From a phage, in assembly GCA_037431425.1 (NCBI GenBank), contig GCA_037431425.1_4129.1: a stretch of 64,000 nt of DNA; one strand, given 5' to 3'. How positions within the stretch are numbered: position 1 is the first letter of the stretch; each line of letters begins with the position of its first letter. Positions 10,505 through 50,717 of this stretch are shown here, piece after piece. The notes beneath the pieces were generated by a model. That model ran no database searches and had not been told where the DNA came from. It worked only from the letters and a program-made list of their open reading frames with translations. Made by a program: the position numbers and the translations under genes.

Positions 10505-11175
10505 ATTACGAATATGATCAACAATCCGTTAATCAGATGGCAGATTTATTAAGTGGTCTTAATGATATTGAAGCTGGTGAAACACATAATGCAGCAGGTG
10601 TTCCCTATAAAGCAAGTGGTGATATTGGTGCAATGACTGCAATTTTAACTTCATTAAATGAAGCTGGAATGGATTACGGTACTGATCCAGAGAAGATTCA
10701 TCCGAACGTTGTACCATACAATGCACCATTCAATGAACACATGAATGGACAACAATCTACCATTCAGCCATATAGTCAACCATCTAAGCCGAAAACTAAT
10801 TGGAGCTTAGTAGAAGAAAAAGTTCAAGGAACTAAATCTACCAAAGTGTATAGTATCAAGTGTAATCATAGTTCACAGATTATTATGAATAATATTATGA
10901 TGTATGAAGCTGCACTTACATTAGTTAATCTTTTGAATGAAGGGCGAATGTTGACAGATGCAAAACTCCTTGGTATAATTAGTTCTGGATTACAATACAC
11001 AAATGTAATTAGTGAGGCATTAAAAGCTGCTCAAAGGCGACAACGTGTTCTTAATGAATCAAAGTATGACGAAGCAAAAGAATTAGATATAATCATTGCA
11101 GAAAAGAAAGCAGAAGCTTATAAATTGAAAGAGCGTGTACTGAACTTTCTTAAAAATGAAGGGTATATTACCTGA
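10501..11175 (+). CDS. Hypothetical protein
   Basis: 224-aa ORF, ATGA overlap with upstream gene. Confidence 0.5.
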   Translation: MNYEYDQQSVNQMADLLSGLNDIEAGETHNAAGVPYKASGDIGAMTAILTSLNEAGMDYGTDPEKIHPNVVPYNAPFNEHMNGQQSTIQPYSQPSKPKTNWSLVEEKVQGTKSTKVYSIKCNHSSQIIMNNIMMYEAALTLVNLLNEGRMLTDAKLLGIISSGLQYTNVISEALKAAQRRQRVLNESKYDEAKELDIIIAEKKAEAYKLKERVLNFLKNEGYIT

Positions 11176-43572: not shown

Positions 43573-43601
43573 TTGACATATGGTGTACCAGTATGTATAA
43601 T
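43573..43601 (+). promoter_or_regulatory. Consensus sigma70 promoter (TTGACA-17-TATAAT)
   Basis: TTGACA 43573-43578, 17-nt spacer, TATAAT 43596-43601. Confidence 0.7.
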
Positions 43602-43642
43602 ACCCACGTTATTTAAATTTTAATTGATTACGAGGTTTTATA

Positions 43643-44770
43643 ATGAAAGGTAAATATTTTTTTGTTGAAAATGGGAAAGAAGTCGAAATTCAAGAATTCA
43701 ACTATAATTATGTACTGAACTCTTTATTAAAACAATATGACCGTTCATCAAACAAAAAATACATTTACAATGTGATTGTACGCCGTACTTATGATTCGTT
43801 GGGTAATCCATCATTTGATGTGAAATCATTGTCATTGGATGAAATCTATTTTGATAATAGACGCTTAAATGTATTTGATTTAATGAAAGATAAAATTCAT
43901 TTTAGTAATGTTAGAATTGACCCAAACATGCCAGTACCGCCATTGGAGCGTGAGTATCGTGAATGGAAAGAAGGTCGTGCAAAACCGCGTCTGGATTTGG
44001 TAAAAACATCACCCGACGTTCCTGCACCTATTGTTCTTAAGAAAAAACCAATCAACCCAGACGATACCCGAATTAAGGATATTGAATGTGTTGTTGAATT
44101 CCCAGACACTATTGAAAAGAACCCAGTCAAAGTGTTAGATTGGTTTATCAACTTACCAGTTTGTGCACAAGAAATTGGAACTAAGATTCAACAAGTTTCA
44201 GAACGACAACTGGAACTCAGTTCTGCATTACAACAGCATAGTGATTATATCAGAATGCTCATGGATAACTTAACAGTAGCTTTGGAAACCTTGTTCCCAC
44301 TGAAACCGACATTCACCCAGAAATTATTTGGTAAAACAGATATCAAAGTACAACCATCTGATTTACCAAAAGTGATGAAAAAACTCAATGAAGCAGTAAA
44401 GTATGATACCAACAAGTTTAGTGGTTTAAATTCTATGTTTTCTGAAATCAGAAAAGAAGTTAATGAAATCAAAAATGAACTTGAATATGGTAAGTTAGGC
44501 TGTGAATACGCACTATGCAGTGTGGATGATGCATTTGAATATGAATTAACATTAGAACGTATTATGAAAATGAGCATTACCACGTCTATGACAGAAACAA
44601 GTATTATTGCTACAAACAAACAATATCAAGTTGATATGAATCGTATGATTGACATTCAAACTATCACTATTCCTTTGATTATCAATCGTTTACAGTCACA
44701 GGCAGGTAAGGCGGTAGATACAAGTACTGTTGAGATTATTCGCAACCTTGCATATGGCAACAAAGAATAA
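43643..44770 (+). CDS. Hypothetical protein
   Basis: 375-aa ORF downstream of consensus promoter. Confidence 0.55.
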   Translation: MKGKYFFVENGKEVEIQEFNYNYVLNSLLKQYDRSSNKKYIYNVIVRRTYDSLGNPSFDVKSLSLDEIYFDNRRLNVFDLMKDKIHFSNVRIDPNMPVPPLEREYREWKEGRAKPRLDLVKTSPDVPAPIVLKKKPINPDDTRIKDIECVVEFPDTIEKNPVKVLDWFINLPVCAQEIGTKIQQVSERQLELSSALQQHSDYIRMLMDNLTVALETLFPLKPTFTQKLFGKTDIKVQPSDLPKVMKKLNEAVKYDTNKFSGLNSMFSEIRKEVNEIKNELEYGKLGCEYALCSVDDAFEYELTLERIMKMSITTSMTETSIIATNKQYQVDMNRMIDIQTITIPLIINRLQSQAGKAVDTSTVEIIRNLAYGNKE

Positions 44771-44777
44771 AAAACAC

Positions 44778-44806
44778 TTGACTTGGATATGTGTTGAACG
44801 TATAAT
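44778..44806 (+). promoter_or_regulatory. Consensus sigma70 promoter (TTGACT-17-TATAAT)
   Basis: TTGACT 44778-44783, 17-nt spacer, TATAAT 44801-44806. Confidence 0.7.
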
Positions 44807-44854
44807 GTTTATAACTGAGCAGCACATCATATTAACTTAAACGAGGAAATCTCA

Positions 44855-45991
44855 ATGGCAGAGAAAGAAATCAATCCAAAAAAATCGTCAACAGTTACTA
44901 AAAACACAAAACGTTCTTCCAAAACTGCGGCGAAGGGTCACACAATTGATGCAAGTGATATTTTCAACCAAACAACAAAGTCACTCCCAGTACTAAAAGA
45001 TGTAAAGGGTAATACCATGTCACTAACAGTTCAAAACATCAACACTGTTGGTACAACTGCTGGTGCGGCGGTTGGTCGTTTGGCTGATGAAATTATGTCT
45101 AAGGTTAACGTAACCGATGACAATACCGAGTTTGGTAAATCAATCACTACAATTCTCACATTGACCCGTGCGGTTGATATTGATAGTCTTCAGGAAGATA
45201 AATCAATTGTTGGTCGCATTAAGAAATTCTTTGTTAATGCCCAACAGAAAGTCGGCGATCAATACAAAAATAGTAAAGAACAAATTGATGAAATTATGAA
45301 AACTCTACAAACTGGCATCAATCGTCAACATGGAGAGTGTGAGTGGCTTGATAAAGCATATAATGAAAACAAAGAATATTTGTTCGAATTACGTGATACA
45401 TTAGTTGGTTTAGAAGAAGTAACTAAAGCACAAGATGCAGTACTGGCAGAAATGCAAGCAAACAAAGACGTGGACTCTTTTGCTATTCAAGAGCAAAAGA
45501 TGATTTGTGAAGCACTTTCTAAGCAAGAAGACAAGATTCGCCGACTTATCATGATGTGTGAACTGAGTGGTCCACGATTGATGAGTATGAAAAAAGTAAA
45601 CTTAAACACTGTTTCTAAGTTTGAAGATTTGAAATCAGTAGTAATTCCTGCATGGAAATCGCAATTGGCTGAACAGCTAATCTCTGAGCGTCAACGTAAG
45701 GATAATGAATTGGGAAATCTAATTGACAATGAAACAAATCGTTTATTAGAGACTAACTCTAAGATGGTTGCAGCTAATATGCTGGATGCTGCAAAGGCAA
45801 ACAATCGTGGTATTGTGGATATTAAAACCTTGCGTAATGTACATAAAACAATGATTGACAGCATCGAAGCTGTTATTGAAGAAGAGAAAAAAGGTAAAAT
45901 GGAACGTGAACGTGCGAAACAAGAAATTGCACAACTTTCACACGAACTCGAAGACACACTTCGTGAAATTGCAGAAAAAGCTAACAAGTAA
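44855..45991 (+). CDS. Coiled-coil protein, hypothetical (a TelA-like resemblance is unverified)
   Basis: 378-aa ORF, largely helical/charged; functional assignment not supportable by eye. Confidence 0.5.
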   Translation: MAEKEINPKKSSTVTKNTKRSSKTAAKGHTIDASDIFNQTTKSLPVLKDVKGNTMSLTVQNINTVGTTAGAAVGRLADEIMSKVNVTDDNTEFGKSITTILTLTRAVDIDSLQEDKSIVGRIKKFFVNAQQKVGDQYKNSKEQIDEIMKTLQTGINRQHGECEWLDKAYNENKEYLFELRDTLVGLEEVTKAQDAVLAEMQANKDVDSFAIQEQKMICEALSKQEDKIRRLIMMCELSGPRLMSMKKVNLNTVSKFEDLKSVVIPAWKSQLAEQLISERQRKDNELGNLIDNETNRLLETNSKMVAANMLDAAKANNRGIVDIKTLRNVHKTMIDSIEAVIEEEKKGKMERERAKQEIAQLSHELEDTLREIAEKANK

Positions 45992-45994
45992 TAG

Positions 45995-46023
45995 TTGACA
46001 CATGGGTGCGTTTTCGATATAAT
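45995..46023 (+). promoter_or_regulatory. Consensus sigma70 promoter (TTGACA-17-TATAAT)
   Basis: TTGACA 45995-46000, 17-nt spacer, TATAAT 46018-46023. Confidence 0.7.
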
Positions 46024-46049
46024 ATTATTATTGAAAACGCACTCTTTTT
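46006..46049 (+). terminator. Hairpin terminator interleaved with the promoter
   Basis: gtgcgttttc (46006-46015) / gaaaacgcac (46033-46042) 10-bp stem with 17-nt loop containing the -10, then tcttttt. Confidence 0.5.
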
Positions 46050-46073
46050 AATATACAGATAAGGAACCAATAC

Positions 46074-46763
46074 ATGAAGCGTAGACATATTAGTGTTGAT
46101 ATTGAGTCTCTTGGCACTCCTGAAAATTCAGGATATGATATTATTATTCCAAATTACGCAGCAGTTGTTGTTCCAAATAAACCTGAAAATGATATCAGGA
46201 ATTTTATATATGTTAAGTTGCCATACCAAGCACAAGTTAACGCTGGCCTGAAATCAGATTCAGGTGCAATGGATTTCTGGATGAATACTTGTCAGAAAGA
46301 ATATCCTAATGCATATGCAGAAGTTGCCAGTACTATGACTCTTCGTGCACCAGAATTGTACGGACCTAATGGTAAATCCAAACAAATCTTTACATCTAAT
46401 AGTATTGTCGATTTCTGGAAAGATATCCGTTATGATATCTATGGTAAAGAAGTTGAACATTCAATTTGGGGAAATGGTTGCAATTTCGACTGTAGTATTT
46501 TACAAGCTAATCACTTAAAACTATTGAATGTTGGTGATTTGTGGAAATATGATGCACCAGAAAATGCACGAACATTAAAACGTTTATTGAATGAAGATGC
46601 TCGTGCTGAAATGGATGAGATTGTGTCAGTGCAGTTAGCTAAATTCGTGAAGTATGCAGAACAATGTGGTATTAATGGTTTGGAATTACATCACCCTCTG
46701 TATGATGCAGCACGTGAAGCTATCCAAATCTCCTACTGTCTCAATAAACTTAAACTGGACTAA
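46074..46763 (+). CDS. DEDDh-type 3'-5' exonuclease (T4 DexA-like), putative
   Basis: ISVDIESLG (Exo I D-x-E), GNGCNFDCSIL (Exo II), HHPLYDAAR (Exo III H-x4-D). Confidence 0.6.
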   Translation: MKRRHISVDIESLGTPENSGYDIIIPNYAAVVVPNKPENDIRNFIYVKLPYQAQVNAGLKSDSGAMDFWMNTCQKEYPNAYAEVASTMTLRAPELYGPNGKSKQIFTSNSIVDFWKDIRYDIYGKEVEHSIWGNGCNFDCSILQANHLKLLNVGDLWKYDAPENARTLKRLLNEDARAEMDEIVSVQLAKFVKYAEQCGINGLELHHPLYDAAREAIQISYCLNKLKLD

Positions 46764-46766
46764 TAC

Positions 46767-47861
46767 ATGAATTTTATTATTCTGTTGATTCCTTCACTTA
46801 TCGTTGTATTTGTTATGAAATACATGTATGATAAGCATATCAGTACTAAAGAACTGTTGATTCATATTGGTTGTTGTATAGTTGGGGCTGCTCTTGTGCT
46901 TGGTATCTCATATGCAATCAACTACAGCCAATTGTACGATGTAGAGATTCTAAATGGGCAGGTAACATCCAAATATAATCACAAGGAGTTTTGTACACAA
47001 TCAAGCTCATGTAAGCATTACACGTGGCACGAGAAATGCAGAACTCGTTATGATAGTAAGGGGAAATCCCATCGTGAATGTGAGTCCTATAAGGTATTTG
47101 ATTATTCATACGAAGTTGACTGGTATGTAAAAAGTACTGTAGGGAAGTTTGAGATTGAGCGAGTAAACCGTCAGGGTACAATGACCCCTCCACGCTGGCA
47201 ACAGGTTAACATTGGGGATTATGTTGCCGCAGAAAGTTCTTATATTAACTATCTGTTCGCTGATAAAAACTCATTGTTTAGTCCTGATGAATTACATGAA
47301 ATGTATGATGAGAAATATCTTAGTTCTTTACCAGAATATCCAAGTATTAATGATTATTACATAACACATCATGTTATTAACAAAACAAATTATAATGTAT
47401 ATGGATATGAAGAATATTTACGTAACGTTTTGAAAACTATGGGTTCACGTAAAGAAGTCAATATCTTAGTTATTGTATACAATTATAAAGATAGTGATTT
47501 TGTTGATGCTACCTTAGCAAAGTGGCGTGGTGGTAAGAAGAATGATGTTATTATGTTCTTTGGTATTGATGGTGATGGTAATATTATTAAATTTAACAGT
47601 ACATCATTTGCCCAGGGAATGAAAAATGAAGGATTACATGCAAAGATGCGTATGGACGCATTAAATGAAAAATTAACGATTGACTTACTAGCAATAGAAG
47701 TGCATAATATTGATACACAGTTCGTGAGACTCTCTAATAAAGAGTTTGAGTACTTGTCTATTAAAATGGAACCACGAAAAGATGTTCTCATCGGTGCTTC
47801 TATTTTATTACTAATTATTTCTATTTTTATTGGCCTTTATATGAGGGATAACGAATTATGA
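46767..47861 (+). CDS. Membrane protein with N- and C-terminal hydrophobic segments
   Basis: 364 aa; IILLIPSLIVVFV and GCCIVGAALVLGI near N-terminus, ILLLIISIFIGLY at C-terminus. Confidence 0.5.
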   Translation: MNFIILLIPSLIVVFVMKYMYDKHISTKELLIHIGCCIVGAALVLGISYAINYSQLYDVEILNGQVTSKYNHKEFCTQSSSCKHYTWHEKCRTRYDSKGKSHRECESYKVFDYSYEVDWYVKSTVGKFEIERVNRQGTMTPPRWQQVNIGDYVAAESSYINYLFADKNSLFSPDELHEMYDEKYLSSLPEYPSINDYYITHHVINKTNYNVYGYEEYLRNVLKTMGSRKEVNILVIVYNYKDSDFVDATLAKWRGGKKNDVIMFFGIDGDGNIIKFNSTSFAQGMKNEGLHAKMRMDALNEKLTIDLLAIEVHNIDTQFVRLSNKEFEYLSIKMEPRKDVLIGASILLLIISIFIGLYMRDNEL

Positions 47862-48412
47862 ATGGTAAAGTTTTTGCATTAATTGGTGTTATTGTTGTAT
47901 TTGGTCTTATGGTAATTGGTTCCATTAGCATGTATGTAGGAACATATGATCGTGCGGTGGAATTTGAAGGTAATATTCAAAAGTATTATGATGCTTCAGA
48001 AAGTCAATTAAGTACTTATACCCTTACAATCCAAGAAAAGGTTCAAGTATCAGATAAGTATAAAGATGCATTGAAAGAAACAATTGAATCGTATTTCAAA
48101 GGACGTGAAGGTGTTGACCAGAAATTTGTAATGTCACAGATTCAACAGCAGGTTCCAAATCTTGATCCTAAAATTTACCAGGAGCTTATGGTAACAATTG
48201 AATCAGGACGTACAAAGTTCAACAATCTTCAAAAAATGAAAATCGACCAATGTACCGAATATTCCAAATTCCGCAAAGGATTCTGGAATTCCAAAATTCT
48301 TGATGTTAACACGTTTCCAAGTGAAAATATTGCACATCTTTGCACGGTAGTATCAGATACCCGCACAAAGAAAGCAATGGATACTGGTATTCAAGAAGTA
48401 ATTAAACTATAA
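47858..48412 (+). CDS. Membrane-anchored protein (possibly LemA-like, unverified)
   Basis: N-terminal TM VFALIGVIVVFGLMVIG; ATGA overlap with upstream membrane protein. Confidence 0.45.
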   Translation: MNGKVFALIGVIVVFGLMVIGSISMYVGTYDRAVEFEGNIQKYYDASESQLSTYTLTIQEKVQVSDKYKDALKETIESYFKGREGVDQKFVMSQIQQQVPNLDPKIYQELMVTIESGRTKFNNLQKMKIDQCTEYSKFRKGFWNSKILDVNTFPSENIAHLCTVVSDTRTKKAMDTGIQEVIKL

Positions 48413-48421
48413 TCTAAATCT

Positions 48422-48449
48422 GGGAGTACAAAATGTACTCCCATTTTCT
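48422..48449 (+). terminator. Rho-independent terminator
   Basis: gggagtaca / tgtactccc stem, aaa loop, T-rich tail. Confidence 0.65.
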
Positions 48450-48461
48450 ATAGGGTTTATT

Positions 48462-49034
48462 ATGTTTTTAAAAAATACTTATGAATTAATTAAAATGCTT
48501 CAAAATATGAATTCTGGTGGTCTATTTCCTTATCATTCCGAGGATAAAACACATCGTTTAGTTTTGAAATTGGATGAAACTGGACGTATTGCATCACTAA
48601 GAACGGTTATTCCCAATATGGAGCAAGTAATCACACAATCAACTCCGAAGTCAGGCACTGCTGTTAATACACCACAAACATATAATCCACAGATATATAC
48701 TATTAGTTCTCCACCTATTACACGAGTTGCCTGTATTGTGAATATAAAAGTATCTAAGGACTATCGTGACTTAATATCAGTTGAATGGTCAGAAATAACA
48801 TCATCATTGGGAGCAAATGGGTTTGTAGTAACAAATACAGGTCTAGTACAAAATGTGAAAGAAGGACAGCAGATCATGAGTGCATTGTATATTAGTAATG
48901 GTTGTGTTATCATCAATGGCAAGTTGTATAGAGATACTGAACCTGATGCATTCACTGAAGATTTGGTTGGTGAAAAAGAATACAGCATTCTGGAAATTAT
49001 GAATTTGAAAAAGGTATATGAAAACGGTGTTTAG
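48462..49034 (+). CDS. Hypothetical protein
   Basis: 190-aa ORF. Confidence 0.5.
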   Translation: MFLKNTYELIKMLQNMNSGGLFPYHSEDKTHRLVLKLDETGRIASLRTVIPNMEQVITQSTPKSGTAVNTPQTYNPQIYTISSPPITRVACIVNIKVSKDYRDLISVEWSEITSSLGANGFVVTNTGLVQNVKEGQQIMSALYISNGCVIINGKLYRDTEPDAFTEDLVGEKEYSILEIMNLKKVYENGV

Positions 49035-49599
49035 ATTTCATCAAGATGATTTACCATTTATCCAAGAGCTTGAGGAACTGGTAATAAGTACTATGGATGA
49101 AATTAGTACTTGGGATATAACCGTTTTTCGAAATGTATATGATAAAGTGGTGAATTTTAAAAATGTTAATATTGAAGTAAAGCATAATAATTTTTACTTA
49201 ACAAAACAATTCATTCTAACTCGTCCAGGACACAAACCTGTTAAGCGTAATTTGTCATTCGGACACATCATTGGTACTGAAAAGGTATATGATGAATGGG
49301 TTGATTCAATCTATTCGTATACAAAAGAACTTATTCCAGATATTGAGAAAAGATATTATCTAAGTATCACATTAGATGAAAACGGAAATCTTAATGCGTA
49401 TTCAATAAATTCTTCATCAAATGTTCCATTACATTCGGTGACGATTGGTGATAAAAAATTGCTAATAAATTCTGAAACATGGTATAATAGAGAAAATTTC
49501 GCAGCAGAAACATTTCAGTACTCTGTATCAGAACCAAAGACACCTTTTGACTTGGTTTTTGTTAACAATATTATTATACGTTATGGTGTAGGAGTGTAA
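49018..49599 (+). CDS. Hypothetical protein; possible divergent member of the FQxS paralogue family
   Basis: C-terminal ENFAAETFQYSVSE weakly matches the family motif. Confidence 0.45.
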   Translation: MKTVFRFHQDDLPFIQELEELVISTMDEISTWDITVFRNVYDKVVNFKNVNIEVKHNNFYLTKQFILTRPGHKPVKRNLSFGHIIGTEKVYDEWVDSIYSYTKELIPDIEKRYYLSITLDENGNLNAYSINSSSNVPLHSVTIGDKKLLINSETWYNRENFAAETFQYSVSEPKTPFDLVFVNNIIIRYGVGV

Positions 49600-49601
49600 T
49601 T

Positions 49602-49952
49602 ATGCTAATATATTTAAGTGTACTTGTTGTTTCGTTACTGTTATCACTGGTTATTTTAAAAATTATTGCTATTGTTCGAAGTAAGATTGATTGTTCTGAA
49701 ACTGGTTCAGTTATTGACTTGGTTCTTGATTATCCAAAGCGTTGTGGTGTTATTGTATTAATTGTTCTCCTTATGAATACATACATCGTCAGAGAACATT
49801 TATATAATATGTATGATTGTAGTGTTCGTTCATTTTCACAAGGTGTGGACACTGACTATAGTTGGTATTATAAGAAATGTCGATTTAAAAACCAACACGG
49901 TATTTGGGTTGATTTTGATAAATTACGTGGAACCCCTACTGGAGAAGAATAA
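49602..49952 (+). CDS. Small membrane protein
   Basis: Two hydrophobic segments near N-terminus. Confidence 0.45.
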   Translation: MLIYLSVLVVSLLLSLVILKIIAIVRSKIDCSETGSVIDLVLDYPKRCGVIVLIVLLMNTYIVREHLYNMYDCSVRSFSQGVDTDYSWYYKKCRFKNQHGIWVDFDKLRGTPTGEE

Positions 49953-49954
49953 TT

Positions 49955-50446
49955 ATGTTTGTCTTCCCTGAAGAGCCATTTAATTTCATTGATCCTACGG
50001 ATGATGGGTATAGACATATTAACATTTATAGTAAAGCCAGAACTAAGCTAGGTAGAGATCTATCTAATTTTTCGTCATATAGCTTCACACTGGAACCATA
50101 TGGGTGGTTTCCATCAGTTGAAACGTTTTACTTTTGGTTTTTAACTGGTCAAAAACACGACGACCTTAGAAAAGTATCTGGTGCAACAGCAAAGGCTGCT
50201 GCTAACAAATATATGCATGATAGAATTATAATGACTGATGATTGTATCTCTATTATTCAAGATGCAATATGTGCTAAGATAATTCAAAACCCAGAGTTAT
50301 CTGAAAGATTAAGAAAAAGCAAATTACCATTCTACCATTACTATGTTTATGGTGGGAAGGTTGTTGATGTATCTGATGAGCATGACTGGTTTGTTAAAAC
50401 ATTCGAAGATATAAGAATTGTTTTAAAGGAGAATCACAATGACTAA
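49955..50446 (+). CDS. NADAR/YbiA-like domain protein
   Basis: INIYSK...LSNFSSYSF...FPSVETFYFW and AICAKIIQNPELSERL parallel YbiA-family blocks. Confidence 0.55.
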   Translation: MFVFPEEPFNFIDPTDDGYRHINIYSKARTKLGRDLSNFSSYSFTLEPYGWFPSVETFYFWFLTGQKHDDLRKVSGATAKAAANKYMHDRIIMTDDCISIIQDAICAKIIQNPELSERLRKSKLPFYHYYVYGGKVVDVSDEHDWFVKTFEDIRIVLKENHND

Positions 50447-50717
50447 ATGTTGGGTATGTTGTAAGCATTTCGATGAAGAATATGATATTTCTTTGGATGT
50501 ATTCCATCAGCAATACATGATATCTTCGGGAAAATATAAACTAGATACCTTCCCAACTCCTAAGTATATGGGGATTTGTCCATTGTGTAATGGGAATGGT
50601 GTATTAGATATTGTTATTGAATTCACAAACACACAAACTACTGATTGTGTTGCTGCGTATATAAGAGATAATCTTGATTTTTTCACTAGGAGATTATATG
50701 AACGAGAAAATATTTAA
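50439..50717 (+). CDS. Small zinc-ribbon protein
   Basis: CWVCC...CPLCNGNG paired cysteine motifs. Confidence 0.45.
   Translation: MTKCWVCCKHFDEEYDISLDVFHQQYMISSGKYKLDTFPTPKYMGICPLCNGNGVLDIVIEFTNTQTTDCVAAYIRDNLDFFTRRLYERENI

Follow-up and report, generated by a model that had tools for sequence, protein, structure and literature searches.

The locus and its gene pair

We analysed a 64,000-nucleotide stretch of phage DNA (GenBank assembly GCA_037431425.1, contig GCA_037431425.1_4129.1; this whole stretch is hereafter called the window), concentrating on two genes at 46767–48412 that encode a 364-amino-acid protein and a 184-amino-acid LemA-like protein. An earlier note made from the letters of the sequence had described the two as a translationally coupled pair of membrane proteins that could act in envelope remodelling, exclusion or lysis timing. 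Region 43600–50500 of the window matches Escherichia phage ph0011 at 98.7% identity, and 121Q, PBECO4 and phAPEC6 at about 86% (86.5% DNA identity for phAPEC6); all four are Asteriusvirus jumbo myoviruses of about 350 kb. The pair comprises the following features:

46767–47861, + strand: gene for the 364-amino-acid protein; ATG start, homologue of 121Q gp68, phrog_2087
47858–48412, + strand: gene for the 184-amino-acid LemA-like protein; ATG start, homologue of 121Q gp69, phrog_1383
47843–47861, + strand: coupling junction, with GAGGGA at 47843–47848 within the first gene and ATGA at 47858–47861

The coupling can be read directly from the sequence at 47858–47861, where the two genes overlap by the four nucleotides ATGA, and the Shine–Dalgarno-like GAGGGA lies 9 nucleotides upstream of the second ATG, inside the gene for the 364-amino-acid protein. 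This overlap is also found in many relatives, and other relatives have gaps of 0–50 nucleotides. Searched against PHROG, the large protein matched phrog_2087 (2e-129) and the small one phrog_1383 (1.7e-65), and these matches together with numerous homologues show that both open reading frames are real genes rather than chance ones. In annotated records, 121Q gp68 is a "hypothetical protein", and gp69 appears either as "LEMA protein" or as "virion structural protein".

A strongly diverged LemA relative

The smaller protein has two features of particular interest:

47870–47938, + strand: N-terminal membrane helix of the LemA-like protein (residues about 5–27), followed by a helical, predicted periplasmic domain
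48251–48343, + strand: stretch from Cys132 (codon 48251–48253) to Cys162 (codon 48341–48343), a co-varying pair

As single sequences, neither protein of the pair gave anything significant in Pfam, NCBIfam, PADLOC or the PDB, and the 184-amino-acid protein had no Pfam LemA match at E ≤ 1. Because it matched nothing significant alone, a diverse family alignment was built from the genes lying 3' of large-protein homologues in 31 lineages (alignment A2). Searched as a profile against the PDB, A2 returned a sole significant match, the Thermotoga LemA structure 2etd (E 2.3e-5, in two colinear stretches), and LemA was also the commonest Pfam family match among its members (8 of 31, all subthreshold, best E 4.2e-4). 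A profile search of 5.8 billion proteins recovered at least 320 relatives of 181–206 amino acids among the matches listed, and a precomputed PF04011 match was present in 3 of 120 relatives among the matches listed. As a bacterial reference we used ten plasmid LemA proteins, three of them Pfam-scanned (8.8e-27 to 1.5e-58) and the others taken by their LemA annotation; hhalign of the phage family against this set gave 97.4% (E 1.2e-11) over 132 columns, with cross-controls at 0.4–2.6% (negative controls below 1%, at 0.4–0.7%). These profile searches and the hhalign comparison indicate remote homology where the earlier note had seen a faint LemA-like character. The identity of the small protein as a strongly diverged homologue of LemA is well supported, and it belongs to the LemA family by profile-level homology and by its helix and size, at scores that stay below the Pfam gathering threshold.

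A single hydrophobic segment is present in 77 of 77 LemA-like family sequences; in the 184-amino-acid protein it spans residues 5–27 or thereabouts, in line with the N-terminal anchor described earlier. The AlphaFold2 model of this protein, built from alignment A3, is all-helical (pLDDT 75.8), with helices at residues 3–62, 66–80, 88–98 and 104–139, among others. Cys132 and Cys162 occur together in 11 sequences of alignments A2 and A3, singly in one or two, and not at all in the remainder, a co-variation that suggests they probably form a periplasmic disulfide.

A three-helix partner with a TPM-like domain

The larger protein is divided into the following parts:

46773–46910, + strand: N-terminal two-helix hairpin (residues 3–21 and 30–48, with a Lys/Arg-rich, predicted cytoplasmic loop between them)
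46929–47351, + strand: predicted periplasmic, Cys-rich beta domain (residues about 55–195; Cys76, Cys82, Cys91 and Cys105)
47352–47774, + strand: TPM-like alpha/beta domain (residues about 196–336), with Foldseek matches to TPM structures
47532–47546, + strand: codons of the G-K-K-N-D loop (residues 256–260), between helix 245–252 and strand 260–267
47784–47840, + strand: C-terminal membrane helix (residues 340–358), followed by a short, predicted cytoplasmic tail that is basic in most relatives

Its family, represented by alignment A1 (50 members, 22–74% identity to the 364-amino-acid protein), is very uniform in length. Hydrophobic segments, taken from 19-residue Kyte–Doolittle windows, lie at residues 3–21, 30–48 and 340–358; both termini are hydrophobic, as the earlier note had it, with two segments rather than one at the N-terminus. 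The AlphaFold2 model (pLDDT 90.4) places helices at residues 4–20 and 27–54 and a final helix at 338–361. In the beta domain, modelled strands fall at residues 57–160 and four to seven cysteines are conserved across the family; Foldseek yielded no confident fold for this domain, returning low-probability FliF-like matches only.

The domain that follows resembles the TPM domain, which is defined by a central four-strand sheet with four flanking amphipathic helices (10.1101/2024.10.28.620569). Residues 214–318 of our model comprise helix 214–229, strand 232–239, helix 245–252, strands 260–267 and 272–280, and helices 288–298 and 305–318, or four helices and three clear strands, with a fourth strand not clearly resolved. 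Six TPM structures were among the top 14 Foldseek matches in the PDB at probabilities of 0.90–0.97 (LMTP1 9h70, TLP18.3 3ptj and 3pvh, PG_0361 2kw7, BA41 5anp and cg2496 2kpt), and Psb32 8c7i and Rhom172_1776 7tbr matched more weakly (both 0.57). Within BFVD, the model matched a full-length relative that UniProt names "TPM domain-containing protein" (E 1.2e-19), as well as phage COG1512 proteins (probability 0.91–0.96). TPM was also the most frequent Pfam family match in A1, being found in 6 of the 50 members, all subthreshold and in the expected region, and hhalign against six bacterial TPM/YgcG proteins gave 77.8% (E 1.9e-5) across the domain and membrane helix. On fold grounds, the assignment of residues 196–336 (approximate bounds) as TPM-like is moderately supported.

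This domain contains a W-x-G-G-K-K-N-D motif in which G256, K257, N259 and D260 do not vary among the 50 members, at least 90% of which also keep W253 and K258. In the hhalign comparison, bacterial TPM proteins have a W-x-G...D-N-G loop at the position of the GKKND loop, which we consider a candidate ligand or metal site. Metal binding and phosphatase or nucleotidase activity have been described for some TPM members only.

Predicted membrane topology

We found charge biases on either side of the membrane segments in both families. Across 44 members of the large family, the loop between helices 1 and 2 has 80 lysines and arginines to 53 aspartates and glutamates, the 15 residues after the second helix have 29 to 89, and the family's C-terminal tails have 134 to 70. 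In the LemA-like family the same counts are 93 to 8 at the N-terminus and 59 to 133 after the helix. Because of this bias and the positive-inside rule, the large soluble parts of both proteins are predicted to be periplasmic. It is well supported by inference that the 364-amino-acid protein has its N-terminus out, a cytoplasmic loop, periplasmic domains and its C-terminus in, and that the LemA-like protein has its N-terminus in and its C-terminus out. The co-variation of Cys132 and Cys162 fits a periplasmic placement of the LemA-like soluble domain.

An additional observation comes from P0361, a protein encoded on a 9.5-kb metagenome contig from the Joint Genome Institute: one open reading frame of 553 amino acids contains both the TPM-like and the LemA-like protein, with a linker of 25 residues between them. 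The linker joins the last helix of the large protein to the LemA helix, an arrangement that would need both joined ends to lie on one side of the membrane, as the predicted orientations have it. P0361 is weak evidence because it is a singleton.

The pair is conserved as a unit

The LemA-like gene lies directly downstream of the large gene on the same strand in 83 of 84 viral and metagenomic loci, and 38 of 39 dereplicated lineages, with identities as low as about 22%, keep the two genes adjacent in this order and strand. Across those 39 lineages the pair is the sole conserved unit and all other neighbours vary; in some lineages, 130–1,300 nucleotides separate the two genes. A tblastn search detected a large-protein homologue in 480 phage records, including Ackermannviridae (Vi01), ICP1, Aeh1/PX29, Erwinia Ea35-70-like phages, Acinetobacter phages, PhiW-14 and Vibrio phage VPG01. 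The hosts span enterics, Vibrio, Aeromonas, Acinetobacter, Delftia, Xanthomonas, Agrobacterium and Sinorhizobium, and a LemA-like homologue in Vibrio phage pVp-1 was listed in the RaK2 paper (PMC3622015). This breadth of conservation, like the three helices and the TPM-like domain, had been overlooked in the earlier interpretation, of which the coupling, the membrane nature of the proteins and the LemA-likeness stand.

A HMMER profile of the large family, searched against 1.84 billion proteins, returned 2,229 clusters (50% identity) at E 1e-3, 1,900 at E 1e-10 and 973 at E ≤ 1e-30. Because the counts at E 1e-3 and 1e-10 are similar, the profile probably misses the canonical TPM family, which is far larger. 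Among 185,579 bacterial and archaeal genomes, one per species, we found only 26 loci, mostly in metagenome bins with two in isolates, and no clear cellular reservoir for the family. The family is in practice phage-specific.

Several of these loci merit separate mention. Many of the 26 bacterial-genome loci come from bins that belong to candidate phyla or have odd labels, and probably represent phage contigs binned in error, and one in a bin labelled Rickettsia typhi (L105:356–1995) is the sole locus in which the LemA-like gene precedes the TPM-like gene. In Vibrio phage ICP1 2017_DRC_82 (L088:3989–5582) the pair encodes proteins of 342 and 182 amino acids and sits in a gene block without the "previously called GPxx" mapping, which may be a variable or re-annotated region. 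A Kuttervirus contig (L025:9831–12572) carries the pair in its early region, about 2.7 kb upstream of rIIA (phrog_3661).

Promoter, terminator and predicted timing

The pair lies between an exonuclease gene and a terminator, as previously noted, in what is probably a three-gene transcription unit bounded by the following features:

45995–46023, + strand: sigma-70-type promoter, TTGACA-17-TATAAT, 12 of 12 matches, 50 nucleotides upstream of the exoribonuclease gene
46074–46763, + strand: gene for a Rv2179c-like 3'-5' exoribonuclease (Pfam PF16473, 2.2e-8; phrog_255), first gene of the unit
48421–48450, + strand: intrinsic terminator, with hairpin and T-run at 48421–48443, a 10-bp stem with 5 G-C pairs and a 3-nucleotide loop

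The exoribonuclease stop codon lies 3 nucleotides upstream of the start of the gene for the 364-amino-acid protein, and the promoter at 45995–46023 is the probable start of the unit. Perfect TTGACA-N16-18-TATAAT sites occur six times in the window, compared with 0.24 expected from shuffles, and all six are on the + strand (at 10951, 26883, 43573, 45995, 62976 and 63523). They look like host-type early promoters punctuating this part of the genome, and the one upstream of the exoribonuclease gene is conserved in 121Q. At the other end, 23 of 38 dereplicated lineages have a terminator-like hairpin 3' of the LemA-like gene, compared with 105 of 553 (19%) for other open reading frames (Fisher p = 8e-8). 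That the unit would be transcribed by host RNA polymerase, early in infection and as far as the terminator, is well supported by inference, the early expression being suggested by the consensus host-type promoter. The terminator hairpin scores on both strands, with a T-run on one side and an A-rich run on the other, and could act bidirectionally; the nearby genes are all on the + strand.

Virion and lysis labels

Two labels carried by relatives would place the pair in the particle or in lysis. Tandem mass spectrometry of purified RaK2 particles found gp175, a homologue of the LemA-like protein, from 2 peptides (11.4% coverage; PMC3622015, supplementary file 3), and the "virion structural protein" labels in PHROG and RefSeq, including that of phrog_1383, repeat this detection. 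If the label were right, the LemA-like protein would be a structural component of the virion, which we regard as very improbable: the phAPEC6 homologue gp143c and the adjacent product (searched as gp143/gp144) are absent from a table of 62 virion proteins, and phAPEC6 particles carry attached host-membrane patches (PMC7247149), a ready source of membrane-protein carry-over. Nor would one expect a capsid or tail protein to be anchored in a membrane, to have a probable periplasmic disulfide, to lie behind an early-type promoter or to have a homologue in cellular LemA.

The second label concerns the large-protein homologue of Vi01, Vi01_203 (locus L087), which bears the gene name "host lysis protein", with no stated basis for that name, and the product name "uncharacterised". 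It would fit an antiholin, a spanin-like function or a timing device, as would the N-in/C-out single-pass topology predicted for the LemA-like protein, which is that of i-spanins and of T4 RI. Like the Rz-type i-spanin and o-spanin, the phage pair has adjacent or overlapping genes and a type II inner-membrane partner with a helical periplasmic domain; it differs in having no outer-membrane lipoprotein partner, no lysis-cassette context and an early-type promoter. We found no lipobox motif in either protein, and the lipobox lipoprotein partner and lysis-cassette context that mark a spanin pair are both missing here. Endolysin, holin and o-spanin genes are not conserved neighbours across the 39 dereplicated lineages, and no lysis gene is annotated within about 6 kb of the pair in the near-identical ph0011 record, which agrees with the earlier remark that the pair is not beside recognisable lysis genes. 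The modelled periplasmic part of the LemA-like protein is homologous to LemA, consists of several helices of 6–36 residues after the long first one and would be unlike the single extended coiled coil of a spanin. Lysis control in any of these forms is in our judgement quite improbable, and lysis timing is the least favoured of the functions first suggested because of the perfect host-type promoter, the lack of a lysis gene conserved nearby and the lack of a lipoprotein partner.

These comparisons correct two annotations, as "virion structural protein" comes down to two peptides and "host lysis protein" to nothing stated. Homology searches do not place both proteins among well-known structural or lysis proteins; the structural label goes back to two RaK2 peptides and was not reproduced in phAPEC6. 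We conclude that the pair is unlikely to belong to the virion or to effect lysis.

LemA and TPM genes in bacteria

We sampled ten bacterial plasmid loci with LemA and found that LemA was directly followed by TPM/YgcG genes in four, with confirmation by Pfam; overlapping stop and start codons of LemA and TPM genes were seen in Burkholderia, Legionella, Parabacteroides and Variovorax. In the other sampled loci, LemA lay beside DUF3137-like proteins, DUF2207 or an M48 metallopeptidase. The four loci indicate that the association of LemA with TPM is real in bacteria, where LemA resembles a module that can be combined with different extracytoplasmic membrane proteins.

The bacterial LemA (PF04011, COG1704) and TPM/YgcG (PF04536, COG1512) proteins share much with the phage pair, as in both cases a helical protein of about 190 amino acids with one membrane helix is encoded beside a membrane-anchored protein with a TPM or TPM-like domain, that domain is followed by a membrane helix, and the genes are adjacent, co-oriented and often overlapping. 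The differences are nevertheless considerable. The TPM-like gene comes first in phages and LemA first in bacteria; a two-helix hairpin and a 140-residue Cys-rich beta domain replace the bacterial signal peptide; the Gly-rich tail of bacterial TPM/YgcG and the insert of about 27 residues found in bacterial LemA are missing from the phage proteins; and both phage proteins, unlike the bacterial ones, fall below Pfam thresholds. The TPM proteins studied so far help, as extracytoplasmic accessory factors, to repair, turn over, mature or gate membrane complexes (10.1101/2024.10.28.620569). Of these, TLP18.3, Psb32 and LMTP1 of the thylakoid lumen, as well as MOLO-1, resemble the phage domain in being extracytoplasmic or lumenal with a C-terminal membrane helix, but they have no LemA partner, Cys-rich beta domain or N-terminal hairpin, act in photosynthetic or neuronal contexts and share 11–14% sequence identity with it.

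A different plasmid arrangement follows the gene order of the phage pair, with a DUF3137-like gene upstream of LemA in Salmonella pCFSAN057252, P. aeruginosa pF007 and Mycolicibacterium pJCM12272. The loci, in which the upstream protein has 273–359 amino acids, are:

L094:1619–3255: DUF3137-like and LemA genes of pCFSAN057252
L100:1080–2743: DUF3137-like and LemA genes of pF007
L096:1832–3252: DUF3137-like and LemA genes of a further plasmid locus

In pCFSAN057252 and pF007 the sizes are also near those of the phage pair, with a membrane protein of 355–359 amino acids and then an overlapping or adjacent 189-amino-acid LemA, and a TDSKG..T...YDH motif is common to the plasmid DUF3137-like protein and the phage beta domain. 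We rejected a relationship between the large phage protein and this plasmid partner (BLASTP E 5.5, hhalign 0.9–2.6%). The plasmid LemA is canonical (Pfam 8.8e-27) and has no pairwise similarity to the phage LemA-like protein.

The varied company of bacterial LemA, which has several unrelated partners, would suit the view that the two phage proteins act separately, that their adjacency reflects shared regulation or inheritance and that the TPM likeness is convergent or spurious. Evidence for the TPM domain that stays below formal thresholds, and the lineages in which 130 nucleotides or more part the genes, point the same way. Set against these are the order and strand kept in all but one of the dereplicated lineages while other neighbours change, the bona fide LemA and TPM genes that are adjacent and overlapping in bacteria, and the fused open reading frame of P0361. 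On balance, separate action appears improbable.

Superinfection exclusion as the main rival

T4 Imm, Sp and RI are early, small inner-membrane proteins with periplasmic parts that act in exclusion and lysis inhibition. The phage pair resembles them in its predicted inner-membrane location and its proposed action on the envelope of the infected cell, and its early-type promoter and membrane anchors with predicted periplasmic domains are what a block to DNA injection or wall penetration by later phages would call for. The confinement of the pair to phages, mostly large virulent ones, is also consistent with superinfection exclusion or immunity, as is the position of the Kuttervirus pair near rIIA, another early membrane-associated gene related to exclusion. 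Imm, Sp and RI are, however, far smaller single proteins that are lineage-specific and have no cellular homologues, and we found no sequence or fold relation of the pair to any of the three, nor any homology with Imm or Sp. An exclusion protein is typically small, evolves fast and is confined to a single group of phages. The length, architecture and GKKND loop of the pair are kept across varied hosts, which fits a conserved host or chemical target better, and homology to the cellular LemA–TPM module suggests an activity of the housekeeping type. Of the rivals to a maintenance function, exclusion is the main one, and we think it unlikely.

Neighbouring genes

Other genes around the pair include two upstream of the three-gene unit:

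43643–44770: gene for a 375-amino-acid protein, phrog_13312, which precedes TelA
44855–45991: gene for a homologue of TelA, toxic anion resistance (Pfam 1.3e-38)

Each has its own consensus or near-consensus promoter, and the two proteins have no pairwise similarity to one another. Their association with the pair, like that of the exoribonuclease gene, is restricted to the RaK2/121Q clade (14 of 84 loci), which led us to reject all three as core components. The exoribonuclease at 46074–46763 is still called "metallopeptidase" or "putative peptidase" in several records. Downstream of the terminator, two overlapping genes at 48462–49599 encode proteins of 190 and 193 amino acids (phrog_26610 and phrog_23860), and the region 49602–49952 encodes a 116-amino-acid protein with a hydrophobic N-terminus that the ph0011 annotation calls "WWE domain-containing"; none of these three proteins had a Pfam match.

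A proposed membrane-maintenance complex

We propose that the pair is a phage-specific, strongly diverged LemA–TPM membrane pair that forms an early, periplasm-facing complex for envelope or membrane maintenance, a reading for and against which we consider the evidence about evenly balanced. The two proteins would be made in a fixed ratio and would form an inner-membrane complex on the periplasmic face, with the LemA-like helical domain docking onto the TPM-like domain. The invariant G-K-K-N-D loop of the latter may bind a metal, a phosphorylated or anionic ligand, or a host membrane protein, and the target of the complex would be a conserved component of the host envelope. By analogy with TPM accessory factors, the complex may maintain the function of the host's inner membrane or envelope throughout a large phage's long infection. 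A maintenance role is suggested because TPM proteins are accessory factors and because bacterial LemA adjoins TPM, M48 protease and DUF2207 genes.

Several results speak against this proposal. The Foldseek matches to TPM structures in the PDB have E-values of only 0.01–0.1 and TM-scores per target of 0.44–0.53; the 364-amino-acid protein itself has no Pfam TPM match, and the best A1 member reaches 18.9 bits (residues 212–267, profile positions 14–77) against a TPM cutoff of 22.1. When the membrane helix is left out, the hhalign result drops to 5.9% (E 0.0064), with controls at E 0.08–0.28; because the match leans on this helix, we make no claim to TPM membership on sequence grounds. For the LemA-like model, Foldseek found nothing in the PDB at E < 0.4 and placed 2etd outside the top 50, a test limited by the long continuous first helix and all-helical composition of the model. 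The promoter was not found in RaK2-like relatives, the early timing is drawn from the promoter consensus only, and RaK2 gp175 was detected in virions, albeit by two peptides. The P0361 fusion could be an assembly, sequencing or gene-calling artefact, and literature searches, partly obscured by homonyms, found no functional study of a phage LemA, a TPM-like phage protein or a bacterial LemA–TPM pair.

The LemA label is already known from GenBank, as are both families from PHROGs. Five points were not found described in our literature searches and appear new: that the partner is TPM-like, that both proteins are predicted to face the periplasm, the connection with bacterial LemA–TPM pairs, how broadly the pair is conserved, and how weak the "structural protein" label is. 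This diverged version of LemA–TPM is one of few two-gene units common to very different large phages, being shared by Ackermannviridae, Aeh1-like T4 relatives, ICP1, T5-like vibriophages and RaK2/121Q-like jumbo phages. More tentatively, and as a possibility that we would not yet favour, large virulent phages of Gram-negative hosts may almost universally carry the pair as an early membrane-maintenance complex that has so far gone unrecognised. It would be a LemA–TPM quality-control module, captured and remodelled, and would keep the inner membrane energised during long infections or counter abortive-infection defences that target the membrane.

LemA and TPM/YgcG are among the commonest uncharacterised bacterial envelope proteins and are often encoded side by side. 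The pair offers both fields a testable lead to a membrane function that many phages carry, its practical value being moderate without a phenotype. If the more tentative reading is true, ICP1, Kuttervirus and 121Q-like phages would provide a simple genetic system for the function of LemA–TPM in bacteria.

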